From the NCBI GenBank assembly GCA_016185725.1, contig JACPNA010000042.1:1681-65680 (forward strand): a stretch of DNA of 64,000 bases. The letters are read 5' to 3'. Every line of letters starts with the position of its first letter. The stretch's first letter is position 1. The notes beneath the pieces were generated by a model that was not told the DNA's origin, made no database searches, and saw only the letters and a list, made by a program, of their open reading frames with translations. This stretch comes from Candidatus Woesearchaeota archaeon. GTDB lineage: Archaea; Nanobdellota; Nanobdellia; Woesearchaeales; GW2011-AR9. This document shows, one piece after another, positions 1 to 30,550 of the stretch. A program made the position numbers and the translations under genes.

Positions 1-670
1 TATGAGTAAAATTCCTCTTATCCTCAATATATCCTACTCTTATTATTGGTTCTTGTTTACCTTGTTCAATTTTGGCAATTTGATAAGCATACCACGGAAT
101 TCCAAAAACATAATCCCTACGTGGTCCTTCATGATTAAACGCTCTCGTCCTAATTACATTTAAACCATAAGACCGATAATAAACATACCCAATTAAATCC
201 TGAGCAATTTTTGTAACCGCATAAGGATTGACCGGTCTTAAAACAGTTTCTTCATTAATGGGCAATTCCTCCTCTTTTATTTCCCCATGTTCTTCTCCTG
301 AACCAGGAATTAAAAAACGAGGATTTATACCTAACACTTTCATCGCATCCAGAAAATTAACCGTCCCATTATAATTAACATTCATATAATGAGTAGGATG
401 ATCCCATGAAGGAGACACAAAACTCTCCGCAGCAAGATGATATATTTTATCCGGCTTTACTTCATTAAGTAAATTACGCACACTAATCGAATCTGTAATA
501 TCACATTCTATAAACTTGATTTTATCCAGCAAATGTCTTATATTCCTTAGCCTTGAATTATTCCATCGTTTAATACCATAAACTTCATAATTCCCTTTCT
601 CTAACAGAAAATCAGCTAAATGAGATCCTACAAAACCTTCAATACCTGTTATTAATATTTTTTCTTTCAT
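1..670 (-). CDS. NAD-dependent nucleotide-sugar 4,6-dehydratase (GDP-mannose/GDP-heptose 4,6-dehydratase-like), partial. The N-terminus is at 670 and the C-terminus runs off the window.
   Basis: The reverse-strand translation starts MKEKILITGIEGFVGSHLADFLLEKGNYEVYGIKR (Rossmann GxxGxxG). It also contains ...TRAFNHEGPRRDYVFGIPWYAYQIAK, which resembles the Gmd 'RAFNHxGPRRG' region. An ATG at 670-668 immediately follows the gmhA stop. The six-frame track does not call it because it is truncated. Confidence 0.6.
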   Translation of the reverse strand, partial: MKEKILITGIEGFVGSHLADFLLEKGNYEVYGIKRWNNSRLRNIRHLLDKIKFIECDITDSISVRNLLNEVKPDKIYHLAAESFVSPSWDHPTHYMNVNYNGTVNFLDAMKVLGINPRFLIPGSGEEHGEIKEEELPINEETVLRPVNPYAVTKIAQDLIGYVYYRSYGLNVIRTRAFNHEGPRRDYVFGIPWYAYQIAKIEQGKQEPIIRVGYIEDKRNFTH

Positions 671-700
671 TTTCGTCGCCTTTAATAAGTCTATTTTAAT

Positions 701-1282
701 TTATACCTCTTTTTCTCTTTTAATTTTACCCACATGACTAGCTATCAAATGAGTAAGAACCATATGAATATCCTCAATTGGACCATAATTATTTGATGGT
801 ACAATAATGTGATAATCAACCATCTCTTTTGCTTCACCACCATCAAATCCCAACATGCCTAAAACTGTCGCCCCTACCTTTTTCGCTGTCTCTATCCCTT
901 TCAATATATTTTTTGAATTGCCACTGCCAGTTATTACTATCAACAAATCCCCTTTATTTATAAAATTCCTTAATTGTTGCGAAAATATATCCTCATAACT
1001 CAAATCATTTCCATAAGCAGTAAGTAATGATACATTGTCTGTCATTGAAATAACTCTAAGTCTTTTTTCATCATCATCATAAACTCTTTGAAGAGTTCCC
1101 TTATTAAGATCACAAGCAAAATGAGACGCCGTCGAAGCGCTCCCCCCATTACCTATAATAAATATTTGTTTGTCATTAGTATAAGCATCAAATATTAATC
1201 CTGTTGCTTTTTTTACATTTAATAAAGGTAATTTATCTATTGTTTTTTTCAATTCTTCGATATAATTTGTTATATGTTCCAT
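701..1282 (-). CDS. gmhA: Sedoheptulose-7-phosphate isomerase (SIS domain, GmhA)
   Basis: The 193-aa protein carries the SIS motif IFIIGNGGSASTASHFACDL and has GmhA-like length. Confidence 0.8.
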   Translation of the reverse strand: MEHITNYIEELKKTIDKLPLLNVKKATGLIFDAYTNDKQIFIIGNGGSASTASHFACDLNKGTLQRVYDDDEKRLRVISMTDNVSLLTAYGNDLSYEDIFSQQLRNFINKGDLLIVITGSGNSKNILKGIETAKKVGATVLGMLGFDGGEAKEMVDYHIIVPSNNYGPIEDIHMVLTHLIASHVGKIKREKEV

Positions 1283-1353
1283 CTAAAATACCGATTTTTA
1301 AGTTAAAATATTATAAAATACTAATCTACAGATATATATTGATTATGATTTTA

Positions 1354-2334
1354 TTATTCATCAACATAAATAATTTTGCTCCCTTCCATTTCAAAATTAA
1401 ATTTAAATTCTCTAAGATTAAATAACACTTTTCTGAGATTATCTTGCTTATTCTTTTCACAATAGAAAAGTAAAAAACCACCCCCGCCTGAACCCAGAAT
1501 CTTACCTCCAACAGCACCAGCTTTCAAAGCCTTTTCATAATAGCCAGTTATTAAAGAATTTGTTATATTACTAGCAAGTTTTTGTTTGAAAAGCCAATTT
1601 TTATGTAGTATACTTCCGAACTCCATGAGATTATCCGTTTCCAATGCTATTTTCAGTCTTTTTGACAATTCCACCATATTATTCAAAACTTCTAAATTAT
1701 CTTTTGTTTTATTTTTTTGTTCAGTCAGTGTAACATCTGATCTTGTATTTATCCCCGTATGAAACGCAATAAGATTTTTTTGAAGTGTTAATTTGGTTTC
1801 TCTTTTCATAATAATTTTTTCTACTTCAACTACTTCGTCTGAATTAAATGTAATAAAATTTAAACCGCCAAAAGCAACAGCATATTGATCTTGTTTTCCA
1901 ATAGGATGTCCTAAAATATTGATTTCTATTTCACAAGCTTCTTCTGCTAACTGCTTAGCCGATACATATTCTCCTCTAAAAGCATGCAAAGCATGTAAAG
2001 TGCCAACAAGAATAGCACTAGAAGAGCCAAGTCCAGAACCCTCATGATCTGCCAAAAGATCAGAGACATAGACTACTTCCATTCCTTTTGTCCACCCCAC
2101 CATTTTAAGAGCTTCTCTCACAAGCTGATGTTCAATTTTATCAATCGAATCAACTTCTTCTACTTTTGAATAAGCAATTCTTATTTTATCTGTAAACCTT
2201 TGGTTAACCATAATATATAGATATTTATTGATGGTTGTACTTAGAACAGAACCTAATCCCTGTTGATAATATTCCCTTAAATCTGAACCACCTCCTACAA
2301 AACTCATTCTAACTGGCGTTTTTGAAATAATCAT
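1354..2334 (-). CDS. hddA: GHMP-family sugar kinase, D-glycero-D-manno-heptose 7-phosphate kinase-like (HddA)
   Basis: The N-terminus MIISKTPVRMSFVGGGSDL is typical of HddA and other GHMP kinases. The protein has 326 aa and lies upstream of gmhA on the same strand. Confidence 0.7.
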   Translation of the reverse strand: MIISKTPVRMSFVGGGSDLREYYQQGLGSVLSTTINKYLYIMVNQRFTDKIRIAYSKVEEVDSIDKIEHQLVREALKMVGWTKGMEVVYVSDLLADHEGSGLGSSSAILVGTLHALHAFRGEYVSAKQLAEEACEIEINILGHPIGKQDQYAVAFGGLNFITFNSDEVVEVEKIIMKRETKLTLQKNLIAFHTGINTRSDVTLTEQKNKTKDNLEVLNNMVELSKRLKIALETDNLMEFGSILHKNWLFKQKLASNITNSLITGYYEKALKAGAVGGKILGSGGGGFLLFYCEKNKQDNLRKVLFNLREFKFNFEMEGSKIIYVDE

Positions 2335-2485
2335 ATTATCATTAATAATTGGTTTTATTATTTAAGTAAACCTCAACTTTAACGAATTTTTACTGATAAC
2401 TTTAAAAATGTTGTTATATTTTTAAATAAGTGTATTAAAAATCCAAAAATTATATTAAATAACTTATAAAAATACAAATATTCAA

Positions 2486-3412
2486 ATGAAATTATCAATA
2501 ATAATTCCTGCCTTTAACGAAGAAAAAAATATAACCCCCTTACATAATGAACTTTTAGCAACTTTAATTACTCTTAATTACAAATATGAAATTATTTTTA
2601 TTGATGATGGATCCACAGACAGCACTTTTAAAGAAATTCTTAAATTAAAAGAACAAGACAAAAATATTAGAATAATCAAGTTTAAAAAAAATTTTGGCCA
2701 AACCGCAGCGTGGAATGCTGGTTTTACTTTAGCAAAAGGAGATTTAATCATAGTAATGGATGCAGATTTGCAAAATGATCCTAAAGATATTCCTTTATTG
2801 ATAAACAAATTAAATGAAGGTTATGATATCGTCAGTGGTTGGCGTTACAATAGAAAAGATAATTTTTCAAAAAAAATATTCTCTTTCTTTGCTAACAAAT
2901 TAAGAAAATTATTAACCGGTGAAAAAATTCATGATTCTGGCTGTTCTTTGAAAATTTACAAAAAAGAATGTCTTAAAAATTTAAAATTATATGGTGAAAT
3001 GCATCGTTATATTACTGCAATTCTTTCTTGGGAAGGATATAAAATAGGAGAAATAAAAGTCAGCCATAATTTCAGAAATACTGGAAAAACAAAATACTCA
3101 TCATCAAGACTATTTAAGGGCATGATGGACCTTTTATTAATACTATTCTGGCAGAAATACTCGGGACGTCCTATTCATATTTTTGGACTATTGGGATTTT
3201 TATCCGCTTTGTTAGGTTTTCTTGCTGGAATAACTTCTTTATACTTCTGGTTTTTCAAAAATTTAAGTTTCTCCAAAACGTTTCTTCCTAATGCTGCAAT
3301 TTTCTTTATTCTAATGGGAATAAACTTGCTCATTTTTGGAATTATTGCAGATATATGTCTAAAAATATATTACAAAGATGAAGAACCTTATTTAATTGAA
3401 AAGATTATTTAG
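2486..3412 (+). CDS. GT2 glycosyltransferase with C-terminal TM helices (polyprenyl-phosphate sugar synthase, DPM1/GtrB-like)
   Basis: It contains IIIPAFNEEKNI...IIFIDDGSTDST and a DAD-like motif (VMDADLQNDP). The C-terminal ~80 aa are hydrophobic. Confidence 0.8.
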   Translation: MKLSIIIPAFNEEKNITPLHNELLATLITLNYKYEIIFIDDGSTDSTFKEILKLKEQDKNIRIIKFKKNFGQTAAWNAGFTLAKGDLIIVMDADLQNDPKDIPLLINKLNEGYDIVSGWRYNRKDNFSKKIFSFFANKLRKLLTGEKIHDSGCSLKIYKKECLKNLKLYGEMHRYITAILSWEGYKIGEIKVSHNFRNTGKTKYSSSRLFKGMMDLLLILFWQKYSGRPIHIFGLLGFLSALLGFLAGITSLYFWFFKNLSFSKTFLPNAAIFFILMGINLLIFGIIADICLKIYYKDEEPYLIEKII

Positions 3413-3416
3413 TATC

Positions 3417-3908
3417 CTACTTTTTATATGTTATTTTATTAATTTTTTTCAAGTAATCATTCATCAACATATCATTTTCTTCTGGAGCCCACTCCGCAAA
3501 TTCCCTATAAGTGGTAGGATTATATTTTCCAAGATACAACTCACAAAGAACTGAAGGTTCCAAAGTGATTATAGTATGATAAGTTTGTGCTGGTATTTCC
3601 ACAAAAACAGTATCCAAACTGGACAAAATATAACTTTCTCTAAAAGTACCATCATCATTAAAAATTATCACTTTCATTTTACCTAATATAAGTATCACTA
3701 TTTCTCTCCCATCATTCATTGGATGTTTGTGTGGTCTAACATAAGTTCCAGGAAGAAGTACATTAAACATTACTGCCGGAATTTCGCCCTTATCAGAACT
3801 TCTTAATAAATAAAAAGCTCTTTTCCTATCAGAAATTTTTGCTTTTTCAAATAATTCTTTTAAAATATTAGGTTCTAATTTTAATATATTACTTACATTT
3901 ATTCCCAT
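3417..3908 (-). CDS. Cupin-fold protein (WbuC-like)
   Basis: The 163-aa protein has a PHKHP metal-site-like motif in a small beta-rich sequence and sits in a glycan cluster. Confidence 0.4.
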   Translation of the reverse strand: MGINVSNILKLEPNILKELFEKAKISDRKRAFYLLRSSDKGEIPAVMFNVLLPGTYVRPHKHPMNDGREIVILILGKMKVIIFNDDGTFRESYILSSLDTVFVEIPAQTYHTIITLEPSVLCELYLGKYNPTTYREFAEWAPEENDMLMNDYLKKINKITYKK

Positions 3909-4025
3909 AAACTTTCAAATAAATGAAGCTTTATAAATTTTAATGAACATTTTTAATAATTAGCACAAAATCTGTTTTATTGTTACTATAAATTTATAAA
4001 TAGAAAAATATCAAAAATAAAACAT

Positions 4026-5741
4026 ATGAGTAAACTTTCATCGACAGATATTCAAAAAACAACAAAGTTGCTTGTTACTGGTGGTTGTGGGTTCATAGGT
4101 TCAAATTTTATAAGATATATTCTAGATAAATATCCTAATTGTGAAGTAATAAATATAGATAAATTATCTTATGGTGGTAATTTAGATAATCTTCGAGATA
4201 TAGAAACAAATCCGCATTACAAATTTATTAAAGGTGACATTTGTGACCAAAAATTAGTTGATGAAACAGTAAAAGAGATAGATGGAATAATTCATTTCGC
4301 CGCAGAAACACATGTAGATAGATCCATCCAAAGTTCAACTGATTTTATCAAAAGTAATGTAATAGGAACACAAGTATTACTAGAATCAGCTACAAAAAAC
4401 GGATTAAAAAGATTTCATTATATCTCTACTGATGAAGTATTTGGAGCATTAGGAGAAGAAGGAAAATTTAATGAAAAAAGTCCGCATGATCCTAAGAATC
4501 CTTATGCTGCAAGCAAGGCTTCTGCTGAACATCTAGTCCGTTCTTTTTTTCACACTCATCAATTGCCCATTACTATTTCTAATTGTTCTAACAATTATGG
4601 ACCCTATCAATACCCCGAAAAATTCATTCCGCTCTTTTTAACAAACTTAATAGAAAGTAAAAAAGTACCGGTTTATGGTAGTGGACTTAACGTAAGGGAT
4701 TGGATTCATGTAATAGATCATTGCCGAGCTATTGATTTAATTTATCATCAAGGAAAAATTGGTGAAAATTATTGTATTTGTACCAACGACGAAAAAAGAA
4801 ACATAGACTTAACTAAAGAGATATTGTCAGAATTTGGATTTGGAGAAGAGAAAATACATTTTGTTGTTGATAGAAAAGGACACGACTTTAGATATGCTAT
4901 GGATAATTCCAAAATAAAAGAATTGGGGTGGACACAAAGTATAGAATTAAAAAATGGTTTAAAAGATACGATTCAGTGGTACAAACAGAATGAATGGTGG
5001 TGGAAAAAACTCAAAGAAAATAAGGTAAAGGGAATAATACTAGCAGGAGGAACAGGAAGTAGATTACTTCCCTTAACAAAAGTTACAAATAAGCATTTAT
5101 TGCCTATCTATGATAAACCTATGATTTTTTATCCATTAGAAACGCTAAAAAAAGCGGGAATTACTGATATTATAATTGTCTGTGGGACGGAAAGTGTAGG
5201 TGACTTCCTAAAATTATTGGGTAGTGGAAAAGAATATGGAGTTAACTTAACATATCGAGTACAAGACGGCTCGGGAGGAATAGCACAAGCAGCTAGTTTA
5301 GCTAAAACTTTCGTTGGAAAAAGCAAATGTGTGATGATTTTGGGGGACAATATTTTTGAAGAAGATATTACTCCTTACGTTGATGCATTTGAAAAACAAA
5401 GAAAAGGAGCGAGAATTCTTCTTAAAAAAGTTGGAGAAAAAGAAGCAAAAAGATTTGGCGTTGCCATAGTTGAAGGAAAAAAAGTAACTTATGTTGAAGA
5501 AAAACCAGAGATTCCTAAATCTAACTTAGCAATGACTGGATTATATATGTTTGATGACGAAATATTTGATATTATCAGTCGCTTAAAACCTTCAAAAAGA
5601 GAGGAACTAGAAATAACCGACGCATTAGATGCTTATGTGAAAAAAGGAGAATTAGAATATGATATAATCACTGGATTTTGGTCAGATGCTGGTACATTTG
5701 AATCATTGCACAACTCTTCACTATTCATTAAAAAAACATAA
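4026..5741 (+). CDS. Bifunctional fusion protein. The N-terminal part is a dTDP-glucose 4,6-dehydratase (RmlB-like) and the C-terminal part is a glucose-1-phosphate thymidylyltransferase (RmlA-like).
   Basis: Residues 1-~330 contain LLVTGGCGFIGSNFIRYIL, YAASKASAEHL (YxxxK) and the HFAAETHVDRS motif of RmlB. Residues ~335-571 contain KGIILAGGTGSRLLPLTKVTNKHLLPIYDKPMIFYPLETL, the RmlA sugar-nucleotidyltransferase signature. The whole is a single uninterrupted 571-aa ORF. Confidence 0.8.
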   Translation: MSKLSSTDIQKTTKLLVTGGCGFIGSNFIRYILDKYPNCEVINIDKLSYGGNLDNLRDIETNPHYKFIKGDICDQKLVDETVKEIDGIIHFAAETHVDRSIQSSTDFIKSNVIGTQVLLESATKNGLKRFHYISTDEVFGALGEEGKFNEKSPHDPKNPYAASKASAEHLVRSFFHTHQLPITISNCSNNYGPYQYPEKFIPLFLTNLIESKKVPVYGSGLNVRDWIHVIDHCRAIDLIYHQGKIGENYCICTNDEKRNIDLTKEILSEFGFGEEKIHFVVDRKGHDFRYAMDNSKIKELGWTQSIELKNGLKDTIQWYKQNEWWWKKLKENKVKGIILAGGTGSRLLPLTKVTNKHLLPIYDKPMIFYPLETLKKAGITDIIIVCGTESVGDFLKLLGSGKEYGVNLTYRVQDGSGGIAQAASLAKTFVGKSKCVMILGDNIFEEDITPYVDAFEKQRKGARILLKKVGEKEAKRFGVAIVEGKKVTYVEEKPEIPKSNLAMTGLYMFDDEIFDIISRLKPSKREELEITDALDAYVKKGELEYDIITGFWSDAGTFESLHNSSLFIKKT

Positions 5742-5803
5742 AGATTAAAATACTTTAATGACGGATAAAGTGATAAATTCATATTAAAAAAAAGTAAAAA
5801 AAC

Positions 5804-6910
5804 ATGGAATATAAAATAACTTTATTCAAAGTTCATATGCCAAAATCTGTAATCAAGCCTCTTAAGAATACATTACTTAGTGGTTTTATTGGTCAAGGTC
5901 CTAAAGTTGAAGAATTCGAAAATATTTTGGGAAACTATATTGGAAATAAATACGTTCTTACTTTAAATTCTTGTACTTCTGCTATTCAATTAGCTCTTCG
6001 CTTGTGTAATGTTGGTTTTGGAGATGAAGTTATTTCTACTGCCATGACCTGTACTGCCACAAATGAACCCATTTTAGCTCTGGATGCGAAAATAATTTGG
6101 GCAGACATAAATCCTACTACCGGAAACATTGATCCAAAATCAATCAAAAATAAAATTACCAATAAAACCAAAGCAATTATAGCTATGCATTGGGGAGGAT
6201 ACCCTCCTGATTTAAAAGAAATTAATATTATTGCTAAAGAATATGGAATTAAAGTTATTGAAGATGCTGCTCATGCTTTTGGAGCAGAATACCAAGGACA
6301 AAAAATAGGTAATCATTCTGATTTTGTTTGTTTTTCATTTCAAGCAATAAAACACATTAATACTGTAGATGGAGGAGCATTGTTCTGTAAATCAGAAGAG
6401 GATTATAAAAGAGGTAAACTCTTAAGATGGTATGGTATAGATAGAGAAGAAAAAGATCGCTCTGATCATCGATTAGAAAAAGATATTAAAGAATATGGGT
6501 ATAAATTTCATATGAATGATGTTTGTGCAACAATTGGAATAGAACAAATGAAATTTATTGATAAAATTTTAGAAAAAAATAGAGCAAATATCAATACATT
6601 AAACAATGCCTTTCAAAACAACAATAAAATTAAATTATTAAGTTATAAAAATGATAGATTATCTGCGTATTGGTTATATACTATTCTTATAAAAAATAAA
6701 GATGATTTTAAAACAAAAATGAACGAGAAAGGGATAATGGTTTCTCCTGTACACGCACGTAATGATTCCCATACTATGTTTCAAGAATTTAGATGTGAAC
6801 TTCCCAATGTAGATAAATTTTATTCTGAAATGATTTGTATCCCTTCGGGATGGTGGCTTAAAAATGAAGAGATAGAATATATTATTAAAACTATCAACGA
6901 AGGATGGTAA
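5804..6910 (+). CDS. DegT/DnrJ/EryC1/StrS-family PLP-dependent sugar aminotransferase
   Basis: It contains DAAHAFGAEY and SFQAIKHI (the Schiff-base Lys region) and is 368 aa long. Confidence 0.85.
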   Translation: MEYKITLFKVHMPKSVIKPLKNTLLSGFIGQGPKVEEFENILGNYIGNKYVLTLNSCTSAIQLALRLCNVGFGDEVISTAMTCTATNEPILALDAKIIWADINPTTGNIDPKSIKNKITNKTKAIIAMHWGGYPPDLKEINIIAKEYGIKVIEDAAHAFGAEYQGQKIGNHSDFVCFSFQAIKHINTVDGGALFCKSEEDYKRGKLLRWYGIDREEKDRSDHRLEKDIKEYGYKFHMNDVCATIGIEQMKFIDKILEKNRANINTLNNAFQNNNKIKLLSYKNDRLSAYWLYTILIKNKDDFKTKMNEKGIMVSPVHARNDSHTMFQEFRCELPNVDKFYSEMICIPSGWWLKNEEIEYIIKTINEGW

Positions 6911-6940
6911 TTTAATAGAAGGAATATTAAAAAAATCATT

Positions 6941-8041
6941 ATGACTAAATTATTATGTATTACTTTATTTGGAGAAATTTGTGGGAGTAGTAGAGTAAGA
7001 GTATTACAATTTATTCCCTTTCTAGAAAAAAATAACATTCAATGTACTTCTAAAAAATTATTTTCAGATGAATATTTTAAGATAATATCTAATCAAAAAA
7101 AATGTAATTACTTAATCAAAAATCTATATACTATAAGTATAGCAATTATTATGTTATTAAAAAAAATAAAATACTCATTTATTGCAAAAAATTATGATGT
7201 AATTATTATCCAAAAAGATGCATTTCCCTTGATATTACAAAAAATAATGTATAAAAGAAACAAAAATATCATTTTTGAATTTGATGACACGATTTTTGAA
7301 CCAAGTCAATTTGCAAAAGGTTTAAATAAAATTTATGATAGGTATAGAATAAATATTTTGCCGCACTTTTTGGAAATAAGTAAACATATCATCGCTGAGA
7401 ACAACTATCTAGCAAATTACGCAAAACAATACAACAACAATGTGTCTATCATAACTGCACCAATAGACACTGAAAAATATTTTCCTAAAAAAAAAGATAA
7501 AAATAATGAAATAATTATAGGTTGGATAGGAAGTGCTTTTACAACCAATCAATTAAAATTATTAATTTCTCCTTTTAAAAAAATAAGTGAAAAATATCCA
7601 GATATATTAATAAAATTAATAGGAGCAGATAAAAATATAGATTTTGATGATATTCCTGTGAAATATGTTAAATGGTCTTTAGAAACAGAAGTAGAAGAAT
7701 TACAAAGTTTTGATATAGGTTTAATGCCCTTAGATAATGATCCTTTTAATAAAGGTAGATTAGGGTATAAAATGATACAGTATATGAGTATAGGAATACC
7801 AATAGTAGCTTCTGATATGGGATTAAATAAAGAGATAATTACAGAATATGAAAATGGTTTTTTAGCTTCAAATGATCAAGAATGGATAAACAAATTATCA
7901 TTACTTATAGAAAATAAAAATTTAAGAAAAAGAATGGGCAAAAGTGGGAGAAAAAAAGCTGTTGAAGAATATTCTCTAAAAATTGCAGAACAAAAAATCT
8001 TAAGTATAATCAAAACTATAGCAGAGAATAGTGCAAATTAG
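6941..8041 (+). CDS. GT-B glycosyltransferase (GT4/group 1)
   Basis: The C-terminal domain has the EYENGFL / E-x7-E-like motif and the length, 366 aa, fits this family. Confidence 0.65.
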   Translation: MTKLLCITLFGEICGSSRVRVLQFIPFLEKNNIQCTSKKLFSDEYFKIISNQKKCNYLIKNLYTISIAIIMLLKKIKYSFIAKNYDVIIIQKDAFPLILQKIMYKRNKNIIFEFDDTIFEPSQFAKGLNKIYDRYRINILPHFLEISKHIIAENNYLANYAKQYNNNVSIITAPIDTEKYFPKKKDKNNEIIIGWIGSAFTTNQLKLLISPFKKISEKYPDILIKLIGADKNIDFDDIPVKYVKWSLETEVEELQSFDIGLMPLDNDPFNKGRLGYKMIQYMSIGIPIVASDMGLNKEIITEYENGFLASNDQEWINKLSLLIENKNLRKRMGKSGRKKAVEEYSLKIAEQKILSIIKTIAENSAN

Positions 8042-8255
8042 CAATTATATCTTTTCAACAATTAATTATATAAACTAAACCAAAAATATAACAAAAAATA
8101 GCCGTTCGGAACTTATCCATGCACTAAAGTGCATAGGTCTTAAAGTTCCAAACTGAACAAGGAAATTTCATGCTAAAGCACAAGTTTTATACCCAAAGAA
8201 ATTTCCGATAAATACAAATAAGATATAACCAAAAATTAATTGAAAAATAAAACTC

Positions 8256-9698
8256 ATGGAAAATTACGATGTGATACTAGTAAACCCAGATTTTTTGAGT
8301 ATTTACAATGCCAAATTTCCTCCTTTTGCAGCTATGTTTTTATCATATGCTCTTAAAAAAGCTGGTTACTCCATTAGAATATTTGATACACAATTCGAAA
8401 AAGAAGATAATCTCTATGAATGTATCAAAAATAATAAACCACTATGGGTAGGATTCTCAGTAATGACTGGTCCAACCATAGCTCGAACTTTAAAAATATG
8501 CCAGAAAATTAGAGAGATCTCTTCAGATATAAAAATTGTCTGGGGAGGTCCGCATCCAACTTTACTTCCTAAAGATACTCTTAAACATAAACTTATTGAT
8601 ATTGTAGTCATATCAGAAGGAGAAAAAACCGTTGTGGAATTAACAAAAACACTAAAGAATAATGAAAACTTGGATTTAGTCAATGGAATTGGATATAAAA
8701 AAAATGAAGAGATTATAATTACTAAACCCAGAGAATTTACAACTGATTGGGATAATGAAGTGGGATTAGATTGGGATAATGTCAAAATAAATAATTACAT
8801 TGATTCTCAAGGCAAATATAAAAAAATTTCTTTAATTACTAGTCGTGGCTGTCCTTTTAGATGTAAATTTTGTTGGAATATAATGGCAAATAATAGACGC
8901 TGGAGAGGCTGGTCTGCTGAAAAAGTTATTGAAGAGATACAGCGTTTGCTTCCTTATGGGGTGAATTATATAACTTTAGAAGATGATAATTTTGGAGTTG
9001 ATTTAAATAGAGCTAAAAAAATTTTAAAATTTATGAAAACACGAGATATTTTATGGTCTTTTGAGGGTGTTCGCGTAGGAAAACACATCACCATAGAATT
9101 AATCCAATTTTTCAAAGAAAACAATTGCCATCATCTTTCTTTCGGAGCAGAATGTGGAAACCAGAAAATGCTTGATTACATTGCCAAAGATATTACTGTT
9201 GAACAACTAATTGAATCTGCTAGATTAACCGGACAATATAAATTAGGTGTTAGATATAGTTGGATTATTGGTTTTCCAAAAGAAACGCACGCTGATAGAA
9301 TGGATCTTATATCATTAATCAATAAAATTACTGAATTAAATCCTAATTGCGCTCATTATATTGGTATTTATGGACCTCACCCTGGTTCAGAAATATTTCA
9401 AGAAACTATTGAAGCGGGTTGGATTCCTCCTAAAAATGTAGAAGGATGGTCATTATTTAGAGAAGAAGTAGATTTACCTTACTGCAAAAATATGTGGTAT
9501 TTGAGGAGCATAGCTTTAGCTTGTTTCTTTAAATTTGCAGTAGACTCTTCTTTAAGAGCACACTCAAAAACAAAAATTATTTATAGAATTCCTTTTAAAA
9601 TTTTGAAGTTTGTATCTAACATAAGATGGAAATATAGATTATTCCACTTTCCAATTGAATACAAAATACTAACATTAATAAAAAATAAAATTACTTGA
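8256..9698 (+). CDS. B12-binding domain radical SAM protein (class B rSAM)
   Basis: An N-terminal B12-binding-like domain is followed by the CPFRCKFC CxxxCxxC cluster motif. The protein is 480 aa. Confidence 0.7.
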   Translation: MENYDVILVNPDFLSIYNAKFPPFAAMFLSYALKKAGYSIRIFDTQFEKEDNLYECIKNNKPLWVGFSVMTGPTIARTLKICQKIREISSDIKIVWGGPHPTLLPKDTLKHKLIDIVVISEGEKTVVELTKTLKNNENLDLVNGIGYKKNEEIIITKPREFTTDWDNEVGLDWDNVKINNYIDSQGKYKKISLITSRGCPFRCKFCWNIMANNRRWRGWSAEKVIEEIQRLLPYGVNYITLEDDNFGVDLNRAKKILKFMKTRDILWSFEGVRVGKHITIELIQFFKENNCHHLSFGAECGNQKMLDYIAKDITVEQLIESARLTGQYKLGVRYSWIIGFPKETHADRMDLISLINKITELNPNCAHYIGIYGPHPGSEIFQETIEAGWIPPKNVEGWSLFREEVDLPYCKNMWYLRSIALACFFKFAVDSSLRAHSKTKIIYRIPFKILKFVSNIRWKYRLFHFPIEYKILTLIKNKIT

Positions 9699-9715
9699 TA
9701 AGAAAAATAAACAAA

Positions 9716-10417
9716 TCATTTTGTCGCAATAATTATCATCATTTTTGAGAGTATTAAATTATTAGTCCTGTTATATAATATTAAGATATATCTTAAGAAA
9801 AAATTACATAAATTCAATGTACTTTGATAAATATAACCTTTCAAACCAATATTAAAACTTTCTTCTTTAATTATAATTTTACTAAAACCAGATAAAGACA
9901 GAACTTGTCGAACACTTTCGTATGAGTAATAGGTAGTATACGTAAAATCATTACTCATTGATCTTAAACAAAAAGGATTTGTAATGGAAGGAGTTCTTAG
10001 CAATATAACCCCATTTGAATTTAAAGCCTGCTGAATAGCTTGGAGATATATAATTGTTTCCTCTTTGGGTATGTGAGCAATGACATCACTTAAAAATATT
10101 AAATCATAAGTATTCTTATGTTTTTTTAAAAAATCAAGTGTATTATATACTAGTTTTACTTTTGAAGTAACTTTTTCTTTAACAAAATCAACTTGTTGTT
10201 TTCCTATTTCAATACCAAAATAATTAGTATAACCTTCTTTCTCAAGATACGCCAGAAAAGAGCCTCGACCAAAACCAATTTCCAGTATCTTACTGCCTTT
10301 ATCCTTGGGTAAATACAGACCATAATTAATTTTAATGTATCTTAATTCTAAAGCTATTCGTGTTTCATCAAAAAAAGAATAGTAATCCTTTGTATATTGG
10401 TGCCAAATATCTGTCAT
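9716..10417 (-). CDS. Class I SAM-dependent methyltransferase
   Basis: It contains motif I ILEIGFGRGSF and has 233 aa. Confidence 0.65.
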   Translation of the reverse strand: MTDIWHQYTKDYYSFFDETRIALELRYIKINYGLYLPKDKGSKILEIGFGRGSFLAYLEKEGYTNYFGIEIGKQQVDFVKEKVTSKVKLVYNTLDFLKKHKNTYDLIFLSDVIAHIPKEETIIYLQAIQQALNSNGVILLRTPSITNPFCLRSMSNDFTYTTYYSYESVRQVLSLSGFSKIIIKEESFNIGLKGYIYQSTLNLCNFFLRYILILYNRTNNLILSKMMIIIATK

Positions 10418-10450
10418 AATCTATATTTATTTTATTAATGATATAAAAAA

Positions 10451-11425
10451 CTATTGTATTAAAGATCGACTCTTTTTAATTTTTAAAAAACCATATGCCC
10501 CTAATAAGAAAGCGTACATTAATCCAAAAACGTGAAAAGCTAATCCCGATACTATTGATTGTTCCTTTGCAAAACCAAAAAACAATAAAACTAGGACCCA
10601 AGTCCCTTCCGTTGTGCCAAACCCCATAAATCCCTGTATTGGTAATAAATAAGTCAACATAGTTAAGCCAGAACCCAATACAAAAACTGAAATAGGAATT
10701 TGAATAAAATAGCTAACAACTATAAAATCAGCCAACAAAAGAAATGACCACAACAATAAAGAAATGATAAACATTTGAAAAATTAATTTTTTAGATTTAA
10801 TCATATCAAAATGTTGTAGTGTTTCAATAATTTTTTCCATTATTTTTCTAAGAAATAATAAAGATTGTTTTCCCCGTATTCTTTTCATGAAATTTAGAAT
10901 AGAATTGCGTTTAAAAATTAAAAGATAGATAATTAATAGCAGTAGAAAGCAAAAAAATAAAGCAAAATAATTAAAAAAGATATTACTTTTAGGAGTAAAT
11001 AACAATGAAATAGAAAAGAATAATAAGATTATTACCATGTCAAAAATTCTCAAAATTCCTAATGTGAACAAGCCTTTAGTCCCCTCTATACCTTCATTTT
11101 TAAGCAAAAAGATATGCGAAAATTCTCCCATTCTCCACGGCAAAACATTATTTAAAAAATTATGGATACAAGTAATATCAAATATTTTATAATAAGATAT
11201 ACTCTTCTCAAATAAAATGTAGGTGCGCAATGATCTTAAAATATTTCCTATTAAATATAAAATAAAGGATATTAATATAACATGCCATTTTAATTGAGAA
11301 AACACTGAAAATAAAAAATCCACAGAAATGCTTTTAAATAGTACCCACAAAATAGCTAAAGTAATAAATAAAGTTGCCAAAAAAACAAAAACTTTATTTG
11401 ATCTATTTTTTTTTACTTCCGCCAT
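10451..11425 (-). CDS. Polytopic membrane protein, PF03706/UPF0104 flippase-like (LPG-synthase TM-domain family)
   Basis: It has about 8 TM helices and the motif LPWRMGEFS, which matches the P-G-x-x-G-x-x-E core of PF03706. Confidence 0.5.
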   Translation of the reverse strand: MAEVKKNRSNKVFVFLATLFITLAILWVLFKSISVDFLFSVFSQLKWHVILISFILYLIGNILRSLRTYILFEKSISYYKIFDITCIHNFLNNVLPWRMGEFSHIFLLKNEGIEGTKGLFTLGILRIFDMVIILLFFSISLLFTPKSNIFFNYFALFFCFLLLLIIYLLIFKRNSILNFMKRIRGKQSLLFLRKIMEKIIETLQHFDMIKSKKLIFQMFIISLLLWSFLLLADFIVVSYFIQIPISVFVLGSGLTMLTYLLPIQGFMGFGTTEGTWVLVLLFFGFAKEQSIVSGLAFHVFGLMYAFLLGAYGFLKIKKSRSLIQ

Positions 11426-11484
11426 TATTTAGTTAAATTGAACGCAAAGGTATATAAAGATTTAGTATTGTGGCCAAAAAGTGA

Positions 11485-12246
11485 ATGAATATGAAGAATG
11501 AATATTTTCCAGAAAAAACGGACTATCCGGATAATTTAGATATTATTAAGACAAAAAAATCAAAACAGTACTATAACGCCATAGAATCTTCTGCTTCAGC
11601 TTACTTTGATAGTCCCAAAACAGTAAAAAAACTATTTTTTAAACGCCTTACTGAAGTAATATCCCTTATTGGAGATAAAAAATATAACCTTACATTGGAC
11701 GCAGGAACAGGTATCGGCATTGTGCTTCCATATCTCAGTCAAAAAAGTCAAGAAATTATTGCTATTGATTATTCTGATATTGTTAATTATGCTGCTTTTA
11801 TGTGTGAAAAGAAAGGAATAAAAAATGTCTCTTTTCAAAAAGTAGATTTAAATAAATTTACTTCTAAAAACAAATTTGATTTAATACTTTGTCTTAGCGT
11901 ATTAGAACACATAGAAAATCCCGCAATCATTTTTGAAAAATTCAATGAAATTTTACATGAGCATGGAACTTTAATAGTGGGTTATCCTATCGAAACAAGT
12001 ATTGTCAAATTGTTTAGGCACTTAGAGTCTTATTTTAGAAAAAGCATTAACAAAAAAATCATAGAGGATAGTTACAAAAAAACGGAAGAATTCGCAGGTC
12101 ATATCTCTGACTGGAAGAAAATAGACAGAGCATTGATCAAGAACTTTAATATAGAAAAAAAAATAGATTTGAAATTCTGCTTCTTAAAATATTATGCAAT
12201 AAGAAAAGTGCACAAAAAAAAAGAAGATAACCTTCATGAAACTTAA
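11485..12246 (+). CDS. SAM-dependent methyltransferase (Methyltransf_11/23-like)
   Basis: It contains LDAGTGIGIV (motif I) and DLILCLSVLEHIENP (motif II/post II). Confidence 0.65.
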   Translation: MNMKNEYFPEKTDYPDNLDIIKTKKSKQYYNAIESSASAYFDSPKTVKKLFFKRLTEVISLIGDKKYNLTLDAGTGIGIVLPYLSQKSQEIIAIDYSDIVNYAAFMCEKKGIKNVSFQKVDLNKFTSKNKFDLILCLSVLEHIENPAIIFEKFNEILHEHGTLIVGYPIETSIVKLFRHLESYFRKSINKKIIEDSYKKTEEFAGHISDWKKIDRALIKNFNIEKKIDLKFCFLKYYAIRKVHKKKEDNLHET

Positions 12247-13894
12247 AAGCGAACAAATTTACATATTAATTATCTTTGGGATATTACTATTTTTAGGTTT
12301 TGCAAGTTTATTTAGCAATAAATTAACCCATGATTTCCCGCAAGGATTTAATGCTAACGACGCTTTTTACAAATACAACCGGGCCCATAATCTTGCAGAA
12401 ACTAGTAACTGGAAAAATATAGAAGAGTATACTGTCGAAGGAAGAAAAGATCTTCTTCAGGATGACAGCCCTCTAGCTTATGTACTCACAGTAGTTTTTT
12501 CAAGCAATTCAAAAATACCAGATTTTGATGCTTACCAATTGATAGGAATAATCTCTAAAATTTTAGCGGCGTTTATAATATATATGATTATTAGGAAATT
12601 CAATCCAAAAGTTGCCCTTATTTCATTGGTCATAGTGCCATTCATATTCATAAAAAACAATTTCATCTCTTTTTATTTTGGTTGGATTCCTATCACTCTA
12701 GCTGCTTCAATATTAATACTCCTCATCTGGCTCCTTTTAAACTTTGAATTGAAATCTGCATGGTTAATCTTAGGAATAATTATAAGTTCTGTCTTACTAA
12801 CACATCTTTCTGAATTTTATTACGCCATTCTTATTACAAATATAATCTTAATATATTTGCTAATAAAAAATAAAAACAGAAAAATCTTAACGAAAACAAG
12901 TTATGCTTTAGTGATATTTATCATTTTAACATTCTATTTTTTACCAATTTTTATCAATAATTCTCTTAGTTTAGCACAAGACAAATCTGTTGTTACTATT
13001 AGCGCACTCAAACAGCCATCCTTCCCCATAACCCTTCTTTCAGATTTTAGCTTCTTTCAATATTTCATTATTCTTGGTATCTTAATATCATTTTATTATT
13101 GCTACCAACACAAAGAAAAAATAATCTACTTTTTACCACTCTATATATTAATAATCATCTCTAACTTTCCTTTATTAGGCATGCACGATCGCTTTTATCA
13201 ATTACGCTATTTTTGGCCTATCATATTTATGATCTTCTTTGGATTAAGTATTTATTATATTATCAACTTAATTCTAAGACTAAAACCATTTAAAAATATA
13301 AATGATAATCTCCAAAACATTATTTACATCATCTTAACTTTATTATTTATTATATTATCTATTAACTTATATTACACGCCTCCCTCACCAAATAGCTTAG
13401 TAGTAAACAAAGATATGTGGGAGGGTATGCAATGGGTAAAAAATAATATTCCTGAAAACAAAACAATACTCATTGTTCATGGTGATAGTTATCAGCAACA
13501 TGGAATCTTCTTGATGTTTGGGAAAGTAATTCACCAGATAAAAGATGAAGATTATTATACCAAATTAAATTCTGGACAAATATCCAAAAATTATACTATT
13601 CGCAAATTTATTCACGGCTATGATTATTACAAAAGAACAGGATTTTTTACTTTTGAACCAGTTAAATTAGGTAAACCAGAATGGGAACAAACTCGTGGTT
13701 GGGAAGAAACCAATCTTTGCGATTTTGAATATTATGTAATCGACAAACCCAGTAGATTTCCGCAAGTAATAAATTACAACGCTAAAATAAGAGCAACATT
13801 ACTAAACAATAAAGATTTCACCGAAATATTTAGTAATGGATGGTATAGTATACTAAAAAATAATAACCCTGGAGCTGATTGCCTTGGAAAATAA
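12236..13894 (+). CDS. Large polytopic membrane protein with a C-terminal extracytoplasmic domain; putative GT-C-fold glycosyltransferase
   Basis: The 552-aa protein has more than 10 predicted TM helices followed by a soluble domain (MWEGMQWVKNNIPENK...). This domain is paralogous to the C-terminal region of the 14285-16273 protein. Confidence 0.4.
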   Translation: MKLKSEQIYILIIFGILLFLGFASLFSNKLTHDFPQGFNANDAFYKYNRAHNLAETSNWKNIEEYTVEGRKDLLQDDSPLAYVLTVVFSSNSKIPDFDAYQLIGIISKILAAFIIYMIIRKFNPKVALISLVIVPFIFIKNNFISFYFGWIPITLAASILILLIWLLLNFELKSAWLILGIIISSVLLTHLSEFYYAILITNIILIYLLIKNKNRKILTKTSYALVIFIILTFYFLPIFINNSLSLAQDKSVVTISALKQPSFPITLLSDFSFFQYFIILGILISFYYCYQHKEKIIYFLPLYILIIISNFPLLGMHDRFYQLRYFWPIIFMIFFGLSIYYIINLILRLKPFKNINDNLQNIIYIILTLLFIILSINLYYTPPSPNSLVVNKDMWEGMQWVKNNIPENKTILIVHGDSYQQHGIFLMFGKVIHQIKDEDYYTKLNSGQISKNYTIRKFIHGYDYYKRTGFFTFEPVKLGKPEWEQTRGWEETNLCDFEYYVIDKPSRFPQVINYNAKIRATLLNNKDFTEIFSNGWYSILKNNNPGADCLGK

Positions 13895-14279
13895 CACCCA
13901 AAACAACTATAATAATTTAAAAAACCAAATTAAATTAGATCTAAAAAGCTTTGGAATAACCACTTTAATTTTAATAGTTATATTTATTGGAATTTTCTAT
14001 AAAGAAAACATACTAACCACCATTTGGGTAGTTCTTTCATTCTTACTTACTTTCACTATACCTGGATTCATTCTTTGCTACTTGTGGCATGATCAATTAG
14101 ATTTTCTAGAACGTTTCATAATCAGCAATATGCTCGGTTTAATCTCCGTAGGTATCCTAAGTTATAATATTTCTATTTATACCGGTATTAACATTAAGAT
14201 TATCAGTATAATTACACCAATAATAGTAACTATCATTTCTGGATCAATAGTATATTTCACTGAAAAAAAAGAAAGATAA
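13884..14279 (+). CDS. Small membrane protein (4 TM), hypothetical
   Basis: The 131-aa protein is hydrophobic and is translationally coupled (11-nt overlap) to the upstream GT-C-like gene. Confidence 0.35.
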   Translation: MENNTQNNYNNLKNQIKLDLKSFGITTLILIVIFIGIFYKENILTTIWVVLSFLLTFTIPGFILCYLWHDQLDFLERFIISNMLGLISVGILSYNISIYTGINIKIISIITPIIVTIISGSIVYFTEKKER

Positions 14280-14284
14280 ACAAA

Positions 14285-16273
14285 CTAAACCACCTTCACA
14301 ATAACTCCCCCATTATTCTGATAAACAACCACAAATTTATCTTTACTATTAAAATAATCTTGAAACTTTCCGATAATAATTTCTTGGGTTTTATTGCCGA
14401 AATCGTAATATCTAAAACTCATTGAATCTAAAATAAAATATTCATATTTTTCTTTTTTCAAGAAATTATAAACATCCAAGGAACTTTTATTGATAAATCC
14501 TTCTCTCAATTTGATATTCTGTTCACACCAATCACAATTATCCATATCTAAACCAATCACTTCATTATTCTGACTTCCAGAAAAAGACATGACTTTAGTA
14601 TTTTTAGGTAAACTATTCAACCATAAATACAATTGCACTTCCTCCATAGACGTCCAACTTGCTCCCGGTGGCCACATTGCCGTATTCACCGCATATTTTT
14701 GTTCCCCAGAAGTATACCATAATCCAATTAACAGAACCATAACCAACACTACCCTCACAACTTTAATTTTATCGGGAACTAATTTAAGTATAACAAAAAA
14801 TCCTTCCGCACAAATCAACGCTGTCGGAATTGCTAATAATAACCATGTCCTAAACCCAAATAACCCGGGAATATTAAATGTAGCGCTATTCACAATTAGA
14901 AAAGCAATCAATAACCACCCTAAAATTACCACGGGATAATAACTTTTATTTTTATAATATTTTTTTGCTAACATTACCACCATAAAGACCGAAATGATTA
15001 TTAAAATAGTGATAATTATACCCCAACCAATAGGATTATTAATCATATTACCTGATTTTGCTACAAAAAAATCATCAAAAGTATACGCTTTTGTCGCACT
15101 GCCTAAATTAGGCTTGAAATAATTCTGAACGAAACTAACTATCTTATACACTAAACTGGTATCCCGCGAAACTAGCCCCGGATCCAAATCGCTAATCCTC
15201 CCTGCTCTCTCTGTAAAAAAAGAACCAATCTTCATTGCCCACCACGATAACGATAAGGCTATTCCAATCAACAAAGAATAAAAATGTTCTAACGGCCATT
15301 TGCGTTCAAAAATCCATTTAATCACAACATAAACACCAAAAAACAGCAAAAATTTAATTGCATGCTCTGGATGAACTAAAAATATGCCAGCAATTGCTAA
15401 AGCAGAAACAAACATCCACTTCCTTGCCTCCTTTTTACATTCTTCCATTTCCTCATTGCCGCCACCGCTGCTGCCCTCACTATTAATACATTCCAAACAA
15501 TAAAACGCCACACAAACCAAAAATGGCAGCAAACTATGCGCCCAAATAAAATGACTCAGATAAGAAGGAATCACCGTTAAAATAAATGTAGCCAATAATG
15601 CCTTCTTTCGACTCTTCATAAATTTCGTTGCAAAAAAATAAAATACAATAATACTTAACGAAATAATTAACGCATTAAAAAATTTAAGCGTCCAATTCAC
15701 CGAATCATTAGTCTGATACAAAACCGCCATCAGAATGTCATACGCTGGAGGATAAGGATCAATATATCGAAACAAATCCTTACCCGTGTAAGGCTCATAT
15801 GCTGTTTTTTCCAGAGCAATATATCTCACACTTCTCGCATGCTCCCACGGATCATCATCTTCTAAATAAGGATAAGAAAAAGCTCCCGTGTGATACATAT
15901 AAAACGTAAACGCAAATAAAACAAAAACTCCTAATAAATAAAGATCTGCTTTATCTAATTTTATTTTGTTTATTTTGCTTATTTCATTTAAATCATCTTC
16001 AAAATTAAATTTATTTTTAATAAAATACCGGCCCAAACAATAAACAGGAACAGCTAAACTAACAACTAAAAAAATTCTCCAATCTAAGGGAATATGTGCT
16101 AAATTCAAAACTGTTCCCAATACCACAAAAACAGGCAATCCTATGCCCATTCTCATCAAATTTCTTTCCCAAAAATTACCCCACTTCTTTATAAATAATG
16201 TAGCTGTAAACCCCAATCCCCATAAATAAACAAAAAATAAAATTATTGTTGTAATATTCATATTTAACCCCAT
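14285..16273 (-). CDS. GT-C-fold-like polytopic membrane glycosyltransferase candidate (OST/ArnT/PMT-like architecture)
   Basis: The 662-aa protein has a many-TM N-terminal region with an acidic first-loop motif (YPYLEDDDPWEH, DxD-like) and a C-terminal soluble domain. No WWDYG motif is present. Confidence 0.45.
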   Translation of the reverse strand: MGLNMNITTIILFFVYLWGLGFTATLFIKKWGNFWERNLMRMGIGLPVFVVLGTVLNLAHIPLDWRIFLVVSLAVPVYCLGRYFIKNKFNFEDDLNEISKINKIKLDKADLYLLGVFVLFAFTFYMYHTGAFSYPYLEDDDPWEHARSVRYIALEKTAYEPYTGKDLFRYIDPYPPAYDILMAVLYQTNDSVNWTLKFFNALIISLSIIVFYFFATKFMKSRKKALLATFILTVIPSYLSHFIWAHSLLPFLVCVAFYCLECINSEGSSGGGNEEMEECKKEARKWMFVSALAIAGIFLVHPEHAIKFLLFFGVYVVIKWIFERKWPLEHFYSLLIGIALSLSWWAMKIGSFFTERAGRISDLDPGLVSRDTSLVYKIVSFVQNYFKPNLGSATKAYTFDDFFVAKSGNMINNPIGWGIIITILIIISVFMVVMLAKKYYKNKSYYPVVILGWLLIAFLIVNSATFNIPGLFGFRTWLLLAIPTALICAEGFFVILKLVPDKIKVVRVVLVMVLLIGLWYTSGEQKYAVNTAMWPPGASWTSMEEVQLYLWLNSLPKNTKVMSFSGSQNNEVIGLDMDNCDWCEQNIKLREGFINKSSLDVYNFLKKEKYEYFILDSMSFRYYDFGNKTQEIIIGKFQDYFNSKDKFVVVYQNNGGVIVKVV

Positions 16274-16304
16274 TAACTAATCTTACTAATAAATTATAGC
16301 TTCA

Positions 16305-17018: not shown

Positions 17019-17049
17019 TTTTAATTTCTTTAATTTTTAAATGTTTCTT

Positions 17050-18795: not shown

Positions 18796-18881
18796 TAATA
18801 AACCTTAAAACAACCATCACTCTTAAAACCTTCGAACTAAAGCATAAGATATATAAATAGTTTATTGTTTTTTTTAATCTC

Positions 18882-20752: not shown

Positions 20753-20809
20753 AGATATTATTCTGTTCAAGACTTTGCCAAAACATTGATTCCTTTATCA
20801 TATTATCTT

Positions 20810-22945: not shown

Positions 22946-22977
22946 TATTTAAATATTTTGAAGTTCAAATCCCTTTA

Positions 22978-25909: not shown

Positions 25910-25937
25910 CTTAATCTAATTGTAATCACGCTCATCA

Positions 25938-28201: not shown

Positions 28202-28204
28202 ATT

Positions 28205-30480: not shown

Positions 30481-30550
30481 AACAATAAACCTCCAAAATA
30501 AGCTTCTAACCCCATTAGTTAAAAGAGATATAATAAACACCTAAACTATC

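Follow-up and report, generated by a model that had tools for sequence, protein, structure and literature searches.

The 64,000-nucleotide stretch of DNA analysed here (the window), from a groundwater Candidatus Woesearchaeota archaeon, opens with three genes that would form the promoter-proximal part of a longer cassette. As judged from family affinities and gene order, that cassette probably makes a nucleotide-activated seven-carbon sugar, a heptose or 6-deoxyheptose, for a cell-surface glycan. The three genes encode a GHMP kinase, a GmhA-like SIS protein and an extended short-chain dehydrogenase/reductase (SDR), and a first-pass annotation of the DNA had proposed that together they constitute a module for heptose activated with guanosine diphosphate (GDP). 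As that annotation described, the three open reading frames (ORFs) are co-directional and tightly spaced; they lie on the minus strand:

2334..1354, minus strand: GHMP kinase, 326 aa, MBI2662468.1 (Pfam GHMP_kinases_N and GHMP_kinases_C); first gene of the cassette
1283..1353: spacer of 71 nt between the kinase and SIS genes
1282..701, minus strand: GmhA-like SIS protein, 193 aa, MBI2662467.1 (Pfam SIS_2)
671..700: spacer of 30 nt between the SIS and SDR genes
670..1, minus strand: extended SDR of the Gmd/Rmd/DmhA group, MBI2662466.1 (Pfam GDP_Man_Dehyd), with 223 of its 331 codons in the window

The trio is identical to MBI2662466 (SDR), MBI2662467 (SIS) and MBI2662468 (kinase) on an 88,391-bp contig of a metagenome-assembled genome (MAG). 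The host is archaeal: the window encodes archaeal-type ribosomal proteins L3, L2, S3, S4e, L32e, S5 and L18 together with an archaeal SecY, and the NCBI protein names carry the label Candidatus Woesearchaeota archaeon. Two small ORFs at 1204..1425 (plus) and 1326..1517 (minus) overlap the real genes and were set aside as AT-rich artefacts, and no RNA features were found in positions 1-2334.

Gene order and the fused fourth enzyme

Pfam and NCBIfam profile scans covered 38 ORFs of the window. For the wider comparison we collected 37 species-representative genome loci of homologous kinases (numbered with the prefix L), in which ORFs were called and clustered and the recurrent clusters annotated. 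The cassette runs in the order kinase, SIS, SDR and then a fusion of about 400 aa that joins an NTP_transferase domain (HddC/ManC-like) to a HAD-IIIA domain (GmhB-like). Among the 21 loci that extend downstream of the kinase by 3.5 kb or more, the SDR is present in 20 and the fusion lies within four genes in 17; the exact order kinase-SIS-SDR-fusion is found in 10 of these 21 informative loci, which span bacterial and archaeal phyla. The association of kinase, SIS and SDR is not a matter of chance. Wherever the SDR is 68-88% identical to that of the window (L015, L024, L025, L037 and L047-L053, the last group with 88%), the fusion directly follows it. In L058/L059, the relative whose kinase falls into the same 90% cluster as the window kinase, the order is GT2 gene, kinase, SIS, SDR, an ORF of 200 aa (ORF200), fusion and AAA_33 kinase, while in L071, a locus from a 6.9-Mb genome, the cassette genes stand together in a shuffled order. 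Genes for a sugar C-methyltransferase, an RmlC-like cupin and additional SDRs often come after this core.

The first-pass annotation had noted that neither a GmhB phosphatase nor an HddC nucleotidyltransferase was visible in the window and had suggested that they might lie beyond nt 1. Both statements agree with what we found. A tblastn search with the fusion protein against the whole 64-kb window gave no match, the Pfam and NCBIfam scans of the 38 ORFs detected no HAD phosphatase, and the only other nucleotidyltransferase in the window is the RmlA half of an RmlB-RmlA fusion. Beyond nt 1, a single fused protein follows the SDR in relatives and is encoded by the same MAG, where it is probably linked to the SDR. 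This protein (MBI2662638.1, P0156 in our set) has 395 aa, is 76% identical to its L047 counterpart, and lies on a 2,644-bp contig beside MBI2662637.1 (ORF200, locus tag HYX11_04220), followed by a P-loop kinase. The sequencing runs SRR12113383 and SRR12113384, which contain the genes of the window, contain it as well. Its HAD domain (residues 233-385) passes the HAD-IIIA and histidinol-phosphatase domain models and has the GmhB structures 3L8H, 4PNH and 2GMW as its best PDB matches; against the GmhB-type models it scores 169.4 bits for PRK08942 (cut-off 178) and 120.9 for TIGR00213 (cut-off 149.6). The nucleotidyltransferase domain scores 122.6 bits against mannose-1-phosphate guanylyltransferase and 115.6 against HddC, and matches the HddC structure of Y. 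pseudotuberculosis (6JQ8) at 78 bits.

Relative to L047:8323-12301, the identities are uneven along the cassette. The SDR is 88.5% and the fusion 76% identical, the kinase and SIS only 59-60%, a mosaic that points to recombination within the cassette or to transfer of parts of it. Right after the fusion, many loci have a P-loop kinase of the AAA_33 or PRK/uridine-kinase-like kind (L055:1937-2095; L047:12294-12947; L015:13830-14462; L011:12636-14462; L071:9181-9801), and in many homologues it is itself fused to the nucleotidyltransferase-phosphatase protein to give about 600 aa. ORF200, between the SDR and the fusion, is conserved in Woesearchaeota relatives only (L056:97-699, which is MBI2662637.1, and L059:3342-3944). 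Even with the E-value relaxed to 5, neither Pfam nor NCBIfam gave a match for it, and an impression of a Nudix-like box in it was not supported by these searches. In many sister cassettes, the gene immediately downstream of the fusion encodes a sugar C-methyltransferase of the TylC3 type (Methyltransf_13/14), as in L004:7384-8649, L018:13861-15096 and L071:13288-14547, which implies C-branched heptoses in those organisms.

The kinase, the isomerase and the SDR

The kinase is best matched, over its full length, by the HddA model of NCBIfam (NF049969, 137.1 bits), compared with 63 bits for mevalonate kinase, 59 for fucokinase and 48 for galactokinase. Its top PDB matches, 3K85, WcbL (4USM/4USK) and 4N3O, score 109-140 bits, and galactokinase scores 39. 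It is 33% identical to 3K85 and 29% to WcbL; the solved heptokinases are about 41% identical to one another (PMC4691232). The residues described for WcbL are Arg13 and Asp163, the catalytic base, together with Gln162, which widens the sugar pocket relative to galactokinases (PMC4691232). R9 and Q148-D149 of the window kinase align with R13 and Q162-D163 of WcbL, and all three are invariant or nearly so among 33 kinase homologues. By both NCBIfam and PDB scores, the protein thus groups with the HddA/WcbL heptokinases and not with galacto- or mevalonate kinases, the grouping that had been named as the outcome that would speak against a heptose module. It is likely an HddA/WcbL-like sugar-1-kinase, predicted to phosphorylate O1 of heptose-7-phosphate in the alpha configuration.

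The SIS protein (62 bits for Pfam SIS_2) has gmhA as its best NCBIfam model (TIGR00441, 124.2 bits), and its top PDB matches are all GmhA structures, at 84-97 bits. In GmhA of B. pseudomallei, the zinc ligands His64, Glu68, Gln175 and His183 are described as invariant across orthologues of GmhA, and the mutant Q175E lacks activity (PMC5705639); a study of the M. tuberculosis enzyme likewise found the equivalent Gln and a loop Thr (Thr122) to be fully conserved (PMC7705670). The equivalents of H64, E68, Q175 and H183 in the window protein are H54, D58, E170 and H178. All 20 of the cassette SIS proteins, drawn from both domains, show the Asp/Glu pattern of ligands, and another 40 homologues have it without exception, as they do Cys57. 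Thr replaces Asp61, and the Asn-Gly-Gly-Ser loop is retained (N45-G-G-S48). Because these ligand changes are invariant across family members from many phyla, the active site appears to be a coherent, selected variant rather than a decaying one. The earlier assignment of this protein as GmhA therefore holds for its closest family and not for a canonical enzyme, as two of the four zinc ligands are invariantly changed; the case that its gene neighbourhood makes for a GmhA-like role is still strong. The two replacements may be a compensated pair that still yields manno-heptose-7-phosphate, or they may go with another substrate or another stereochemistry at C2, and the exact sugar is therefore uncertain. 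The kinase and SIS families are both tight: their members are more than 55-65% identical between bacteria and archaea, and about 30% identical to characterised enzymes.

The full SDR was taken from public short contigs (L001-L003 and L046) that are identical to the window where they overlap it; it has 331 aa (ORF L001:2575-3570), with 100% identity to the part encoded in the window. Among NCBIfam models, gmd scores highest (TIGR01472, 181.8 bits for the full 331-aa protein). Among solved structures, the best match is Rmd of A. thermoaerophilus (2PK3, 233 bits) and the second best, over the full length, is the GDP-heptose 4,6-dehydratase of C. jejuni (7US5, 202 bits), which is ahead of every Gmd structure (149 bits or less) by more than 50 bits. 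The protein has the motifs GxxGxxG at 9-15, S124-G125-E126 and Y150xxxK154. Compared with the Gmd-type signature [ST]-S-E ... Y-x3-K (PMC8987622), it keeps the Ser, Glu, Tyr and Lys and replaces the middle Ser with Gly, and Rmd carries the same residues. Separating dehydratases from reductases by motif was dropped, since Rmd, DmhA and the window SDR all hold Ser-x-Glu...YxxxK.

The minimal cassette, as in L047, L059 and the window organism, has one SDR only. As the sole SDR, a pure 4-reductase would lack a keto substrate, and oxidation at C4, at least, would therefore be needed. Several Gmds also reduce their own product and act as bifunctional Gmd/Rmd enzymes (bioRxiv 10.1101/854612). The most economical reading of this context is that the SDR is a dehydratase, possibly a bifunctional one.

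Proposed pathway, inserted DNA and competing explanations

Beyond nt 1, the DNA past the SDR stop codon (L001, L002 and L046) tracks the SDR-ORF200 spacer of a relative up to ...AATAGTACAGGAGTGC and is foreign from there on, beginning 60 nt after the stop and in intergenic sequence. At the other side, the fusion-bearing contigs L055 and L056 start with 30 nt of foreign DNA followed by CAGGAGTGC-GTAAAGTTTATAAA..., the rest of the SDR-ORF200 spacer. The 9-bp direct repeat CAGGAGTGC stands on both sides of the insertion, of which the following pieces were recovered:

L002:1878-2148
L046:1149-1419
L055/L056:1-39

At the foreign left end a coding sequence begins; full-length homologues of its product, found by a degenerate-pattern scan of metagenomes, have about 305 aa with DDE_Tnp_1 and DUF772 transposase domains (IS4/IS5-type). 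The homologous elements are about 1,023 bp long with perfect 18-bp inverted repeats, GGCTAATATGAAACCCTC. We infer that mobile DNA in an intergenic spacer splits the cassette, the rest of which follows past nt 1; this would also account for the break in public assemblies there. We do not claim a simple insertion of a single insertion sequence (IS), as the terminal repeat of the IS is not matched at the right end; because of this mismatch over the 30 nt known, the insertion may be larger or composite.

The gene order in this organism would then be kinase, SIS, SDR, inserted mobile DNA, ORF200, nucleotidyltransferase/HAD-IIIA fusion and P-loop kinase. In the pathway that we propose, the SIS protein would turn sedoheptulose-7-phosphate into aldoheptose-7-phosphate, the GHMP kinase would phosphorylate it at O1, and the HAD domain of the fusion would remove the 7-phosphate. 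The nucleotidyltransferase domain would make a nucleoside diphosphate (NDP)-heptose, probably with GDP. The SDR would oxidise C4 and eliminate water across C5/C6 to give a 6-deoxy-4-keto-heptose, perhaps then reduced by the same SDR or by another partner, and the product would be supplied to the adjacent surface-glycan machinery. We infer every substrate and product in this scheme, the nucleotide, the dehydratase activity and the linkage across the insertion from features that are directly seen, namely gene content and order, family affinities, the catalytic residues of the kinase, synteny and the fusion in the same MAG. Of the module originally proposed, the nucleotide-heptose or 6-deoxyheptose logic is thus borne out by the kinase, the synteny and the fusion; the GDP moiety and the 4,6-dehydration are less secure parts, the latter in view of the top solved match of the SDR.

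A number of points weigh against this pathway. Assignments fall below their curated cut-offs, those of the three window proteins by far: the kinase for HddA (137.1 against 600 bits), the SIS protein for gmhA (124.2 against 209.45), the SDR for gmd (181.8 against 415), and the nucleotidyltransferase domain for HddC (115.6 against 300), which leaves the nucleotide unassigned. The metal site of the SIS protein keeps both His residues, with Glu68 replaced by Asp and Gln175 by Glu, and its phosphate loop (T118-G-S-G-N-S123) has Gly where Thr122, in M. tuberculosis numbering, is expected. The best solved match of the SDR is a 4-reductase rather than a dehydratase, the minimal cassette has no assigned separate 4-reductase, and the recurrent P-loop kinase has no place in the canonical heptose pathway. 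As to the insertion, the junction that links SDR and fusion was rebuilt from short contigs and not from a spanning read, the 30 nt known from its right end are unlike the 18-bp inverted repeat of the IS, and the insertion may silence the genes downstream.

The altered isomerase bears on the identity of the sugar. The same architecture could serve another one, if the variant SIS protein used another ketose phosphate or set the opposite configuration at C2 (gluco, not manno); the product would then be an octose made via octulose-8-phosphate or a non-manno heptose such as D-glycero-D-galacto-heptose. We consider this unlikely. The isomerase-kinase-phosphatase-guanylyltransferase logic also serves GDP-octose (LmbN/P/K/O). 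Two changes of zinc or catalytic ligands are invariant in 40-60 SIS members from many phyla, one of them the change that kills canonical GmhA (Q175E, PMC5705639), and the tightness of the kinase and SIS families at their distance from characterised enzymes fits a separate substrate as well. Archaeal glycans, moreover, hold a non-manno heptose for which no biosynthetic route has been described (PMC12448462, PMC11407970), and Thermoplasmata MAGs are among the carriers of the cassette. However, the exchanges of Glu for Asp and Gln for Glu are chemically conservative, and a compensated pair could still convert sedoheptulose-7-phosphate to manno-heptose-7-phosphate; the kinase retains the heptose-pocket residue of WcbL, and the cassettes contain no transaldolase for octulose synthesis. 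One version of this idea is that the GHMP kinase, the SIS protein with its invariant His-Asp-Glu-His site and Cys, the fusion and the P-loop kinase make up a route, so far unrecognised and shared by bacteria and archaea, to heptoses that are not D-glycero-D-manno-heptose, in which the altered isomerase may set a different C2 configuration or take a different substrate and the first-modifying SDR may be interchangeable. Such a route, which might underlie archaeal heptoses such as the D-glycero-D-galacto-heptose of Thermoplasmatales, is a speculative proposal that we hold to be rather unlikely.

Two further explanations were considered. If its adjacency to the kinase and SIS genes were meaningless, the SDR could be an ordinary GDP-mannose 4,6-dehydratase or 4-reductase working towards GDP-D-rhamnose or another 6-deoxyhexose. 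The NCBI label of the protein is ‘GDP-mannose 4,6-dehydratase’, its best NCBIfam and PDB matches are gmd and Rmd, and the bifunctional Gmd/Rmd enzymes mentioned above give this a precedent (bioRxiv 10.1101/854612). Yet its score is under half of the gmd cut-off, 7US5 beats every Gmd, and the slot of the SDR between the SIS gene and the nucleotidyltransferase-phosphatase fusion is fixed in unrelated genomes (L015, L024, L047 and L059). The first-pass annotation had set a canonical Gmd with a separate GDP-fucose synthase against its own proposal, and the data point the other way: the window scans found no GDP-fucose synthase (two other SDRs reach 69-71 bits against a cut-off of 500), and neither ManB nor ManC (phosphomannomutase and mannose-1-phosphate guanylyltransferase). 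We therefore give this explanation hardly any credence. The other is that the module is a recently inactivated remnant, in which the insertion uncoupled the operon so that the activated sugar is no longer made. The insertion is present in all four SDR-carrying runs (L001, L002 and L046; L003 is too short to extend far), and no contig bridging SDR and ORF200 was among those returned, two contigs of 20-50 kb lying outside that set. Against this, the ORFs on both sides are intact and apparently constrained, the insertion is intergenic, the downstream genes may have their own or an IS-borne promoter, and an uninterrupted allele is possible. A remnant is improbable to our minds, and a heptose cassette is the reading that we prefer.

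Glycan island, distribution and known systems

Upstream of the kinase, the window continues with a divergently transcribed glycosyltransferase gene and a large island of surface-glycan genes:

2335..2485: divergent intergenic region of 151 nt between the kinase and GT2 genes
2486..3412, plus strand: GT2 polyprenyl-phosphate glycosyltransferase-like protein (ArnC/PgfS/AglJ-like), 308 aa (Pfam Glycos_transf_2)
3417..30540: surface-glycan gene island (context)
4026-5741, plus strand: RmlB-RmlA fusion, 571 aa; RmlB 452 bits, above cut-off; RmlA-like glucose-1-phosphate thymidylyltransferase
8256-9698, plus strand: B12-binding radical SAM protein, inside the glycan island
20810-22945, minus strand: fusion of zinc-type alcohol dehydrogenase and GFO/IDH/MocA oxidoreductase, 711 aa
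22978-24870, plus strand: heparinase II/III-like protein (N and C domains)

The 151-nt region presumably holds the promoter; it has no Rfam match. The GT2 protein scores 172 bits against the NCBIfam PgfS model and 169 against an ArnC-type model, and its divergent arrangement with the kinase gene is shared by the nearest relatives L041, L042 and L058. By this association, it is a possible user of the activated sugar. The island contains polyprenyl-phosphate GT2s, GT4 enzymes, PMT-like GT-C proteins, LPG_synthase_TM proteins, a WbuC cupin, a DegT aminotransferase, the RmlB-RmlA fusion, the B12-radical SAM protein, methyltransferases, the heparinase II/III-like protein, UDP-sugar dehydrogenases and SDRs, and this content is consistent with an activated sugar bound for a cell-surface glycan. 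The GC content is 26-31% from 1 to about 30.5 kb, the glycan island, versus 33-38% in the ribosomal-protein half. GC skew is strongly negative throughout the window (cumulative -8), and the 64 kb contain no tRNA and a single 5S rRNA at 33173-33285 (minus). The RmlB-RmlA fusion is also found in the relative L041 (575 aa); a survey listed one or two RmlA/RmlB fusions only (bioRxiv 10.1101/854612). Homologues of the B12-radical SAM protein lie near the cassette in the unrelated loci L007, L015 (twice), L020, L029, L041 and L047, and the protein is a candidate for sugar methylation or some other radical modification.

The first-pass annotation had called the pathway rare in archaea, which our comparison does not bear out for uncultivated lineages: about 16 of the 37 species-representative loci (about 40%) are archaeal, from Nanoarchaeia/Woesearchaeota, Thermoplasmata, Heimdallarchaeota and unclassified Euryarchaeota, and named matches further include Methanoperedens, Aenigmarchaeota, Pacearchaeota, Odinarchaeota and Hodarchaeales. 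Bacterial carriers include the candidate phyla radiation (CPR), Omnitrophota and Chloroflexota, among others. The kinase family as a whole has thousands of metagenomic homologues more than 60% identical, in bacteria and archaea. Heptoses are present in archaeal glycans, as D-glycero-D-galacto-heptose in the N-glycans of Thermoplasma and Cuniculiplasma (PMC12448462, PMC11407970), and there are recent reports of beta-type NDP-heptose enzymes from archaea (Tang et al. 2024, as summarised in PMC11573728).

The pathway logic is already known, in contrast to the nucleotidyltransferase-phosphatase fusion, the variant isomerase site, the additional recurrent P-loop kinase and the archaeal hosts, which are uncharacterised. 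Within the searchable literature, neither a characterised fusion of HddC and GmhB nor this SIS variant turned up, an absence that is weak evidence. We know of no alpha-type heptose route that has been tested in archaea. The surface glycans of DPANN archaea, which probably mediate attachment to hosts, are essentially uncharacterised. Automated pipelines (JGI names) already call these proteins heptose enzymes; the isomerase nevertheless departs from GmhA at two supposedly invariant residues, and an unexplained fifth enzyme is present. Assays of four small soluble proteins would confirm annotations in the thousands or else uncover a new activated sugar, and the fused transferase-phosphatase could serve as a one-protein tool for making NDP-heptoses. 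If the non-manno route were true, the cassette might supply the genes so far missing for archaeal heptoses.

The canonical heptose pathway shares with the cassette a SIS_2 isomerase, a GHMP anomeric kinase with its Arg, Asp and pocket Gln, a HAD-IIIA 7-phosphatase, an enzyme of the NTP_transferase fold and an extended SDR, with the genes clustered inside a surface-glycan locus. The cassette differs in that nucleotidyltransferase and phosphatase are one polypeptide, in the Glu-to-Asp and Gln-to-Glu exchanges of its SIS ligands, and in the distance of its proteins from characterised enzymes (about 30% identity, under the curated cut-offs). It also adds a P-loop kinase and, in Woesearchaeota, ORF200, and its host here is a DPANN archaeon. 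The GDP-octose pathway of lincomycin biosynthesis (LmbR/N/P/K/O) applies the same four-enzyme logic to a higher ketose phosphate; it differs in having a dedicated transaldolase and separate proteins and in belonging to actinobacterial secondary metabolism. The LmbN/P/K/O genes are named in PMC4351081.

With the GDP-D-rhamnose pathway (Gmd plus Rmd), the cassette shares the closeness of its SDR to Rmd 2PK3 and the Ser-x-Glu...YxxxK motif, whereas here the SDR has no Gmd partner and no GDP-mannose supply genes in the window, and lies within a heptose-type cassette. Across cassettes, the slot after the SIS gene holds either a DmhA/Rmd-like SDR, as in the window, or an SDR that best matches 6VO6/6VO8 (123 bits), and sister cassettes of the latter type often continue with RmlC-like cupins and short SDRs. 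We provisionally take 6VO6 to be C. jejuni Cj1427, a GDP-heptose C4-dehydrogenase. On this assumption, the two cassette types would mirror the two entry points of heptose modification in C. jejuni. There, a C4-dehydrogenase or a 4,6-dehydratase acts before cupin C3/C5-epimerases and C4-reductases (PMC10680097). Two SDR types in the slot after the SIS gene, RmlC-like epimerases and further SDRs would thus be common to the C. jejuni toolkit and the sister cassettes; many sister cassettes differ from it by the added TylC3-type C-methyltransferase, and the window version by having no assigned epimerase or reductase.

The HldE/HldA/HldC-type route to ADP- or NDP-beta-D-manno-heptose, finally, also proceeds from sedoheptulose-7-phosphate through an isomerase, a kinase, a phosphatase and a nucleotidyltransferase and is also reported from archaea (summarised in PMC11573728). 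It differs by its PfkB-family kinase, its cytidylyltransferase fold and its beta anomer, whereas the cassette described here has a GHMP kinase and a nucleotidyltransferase of the RmlA/ManC fold, which would go with the alpha anomer.

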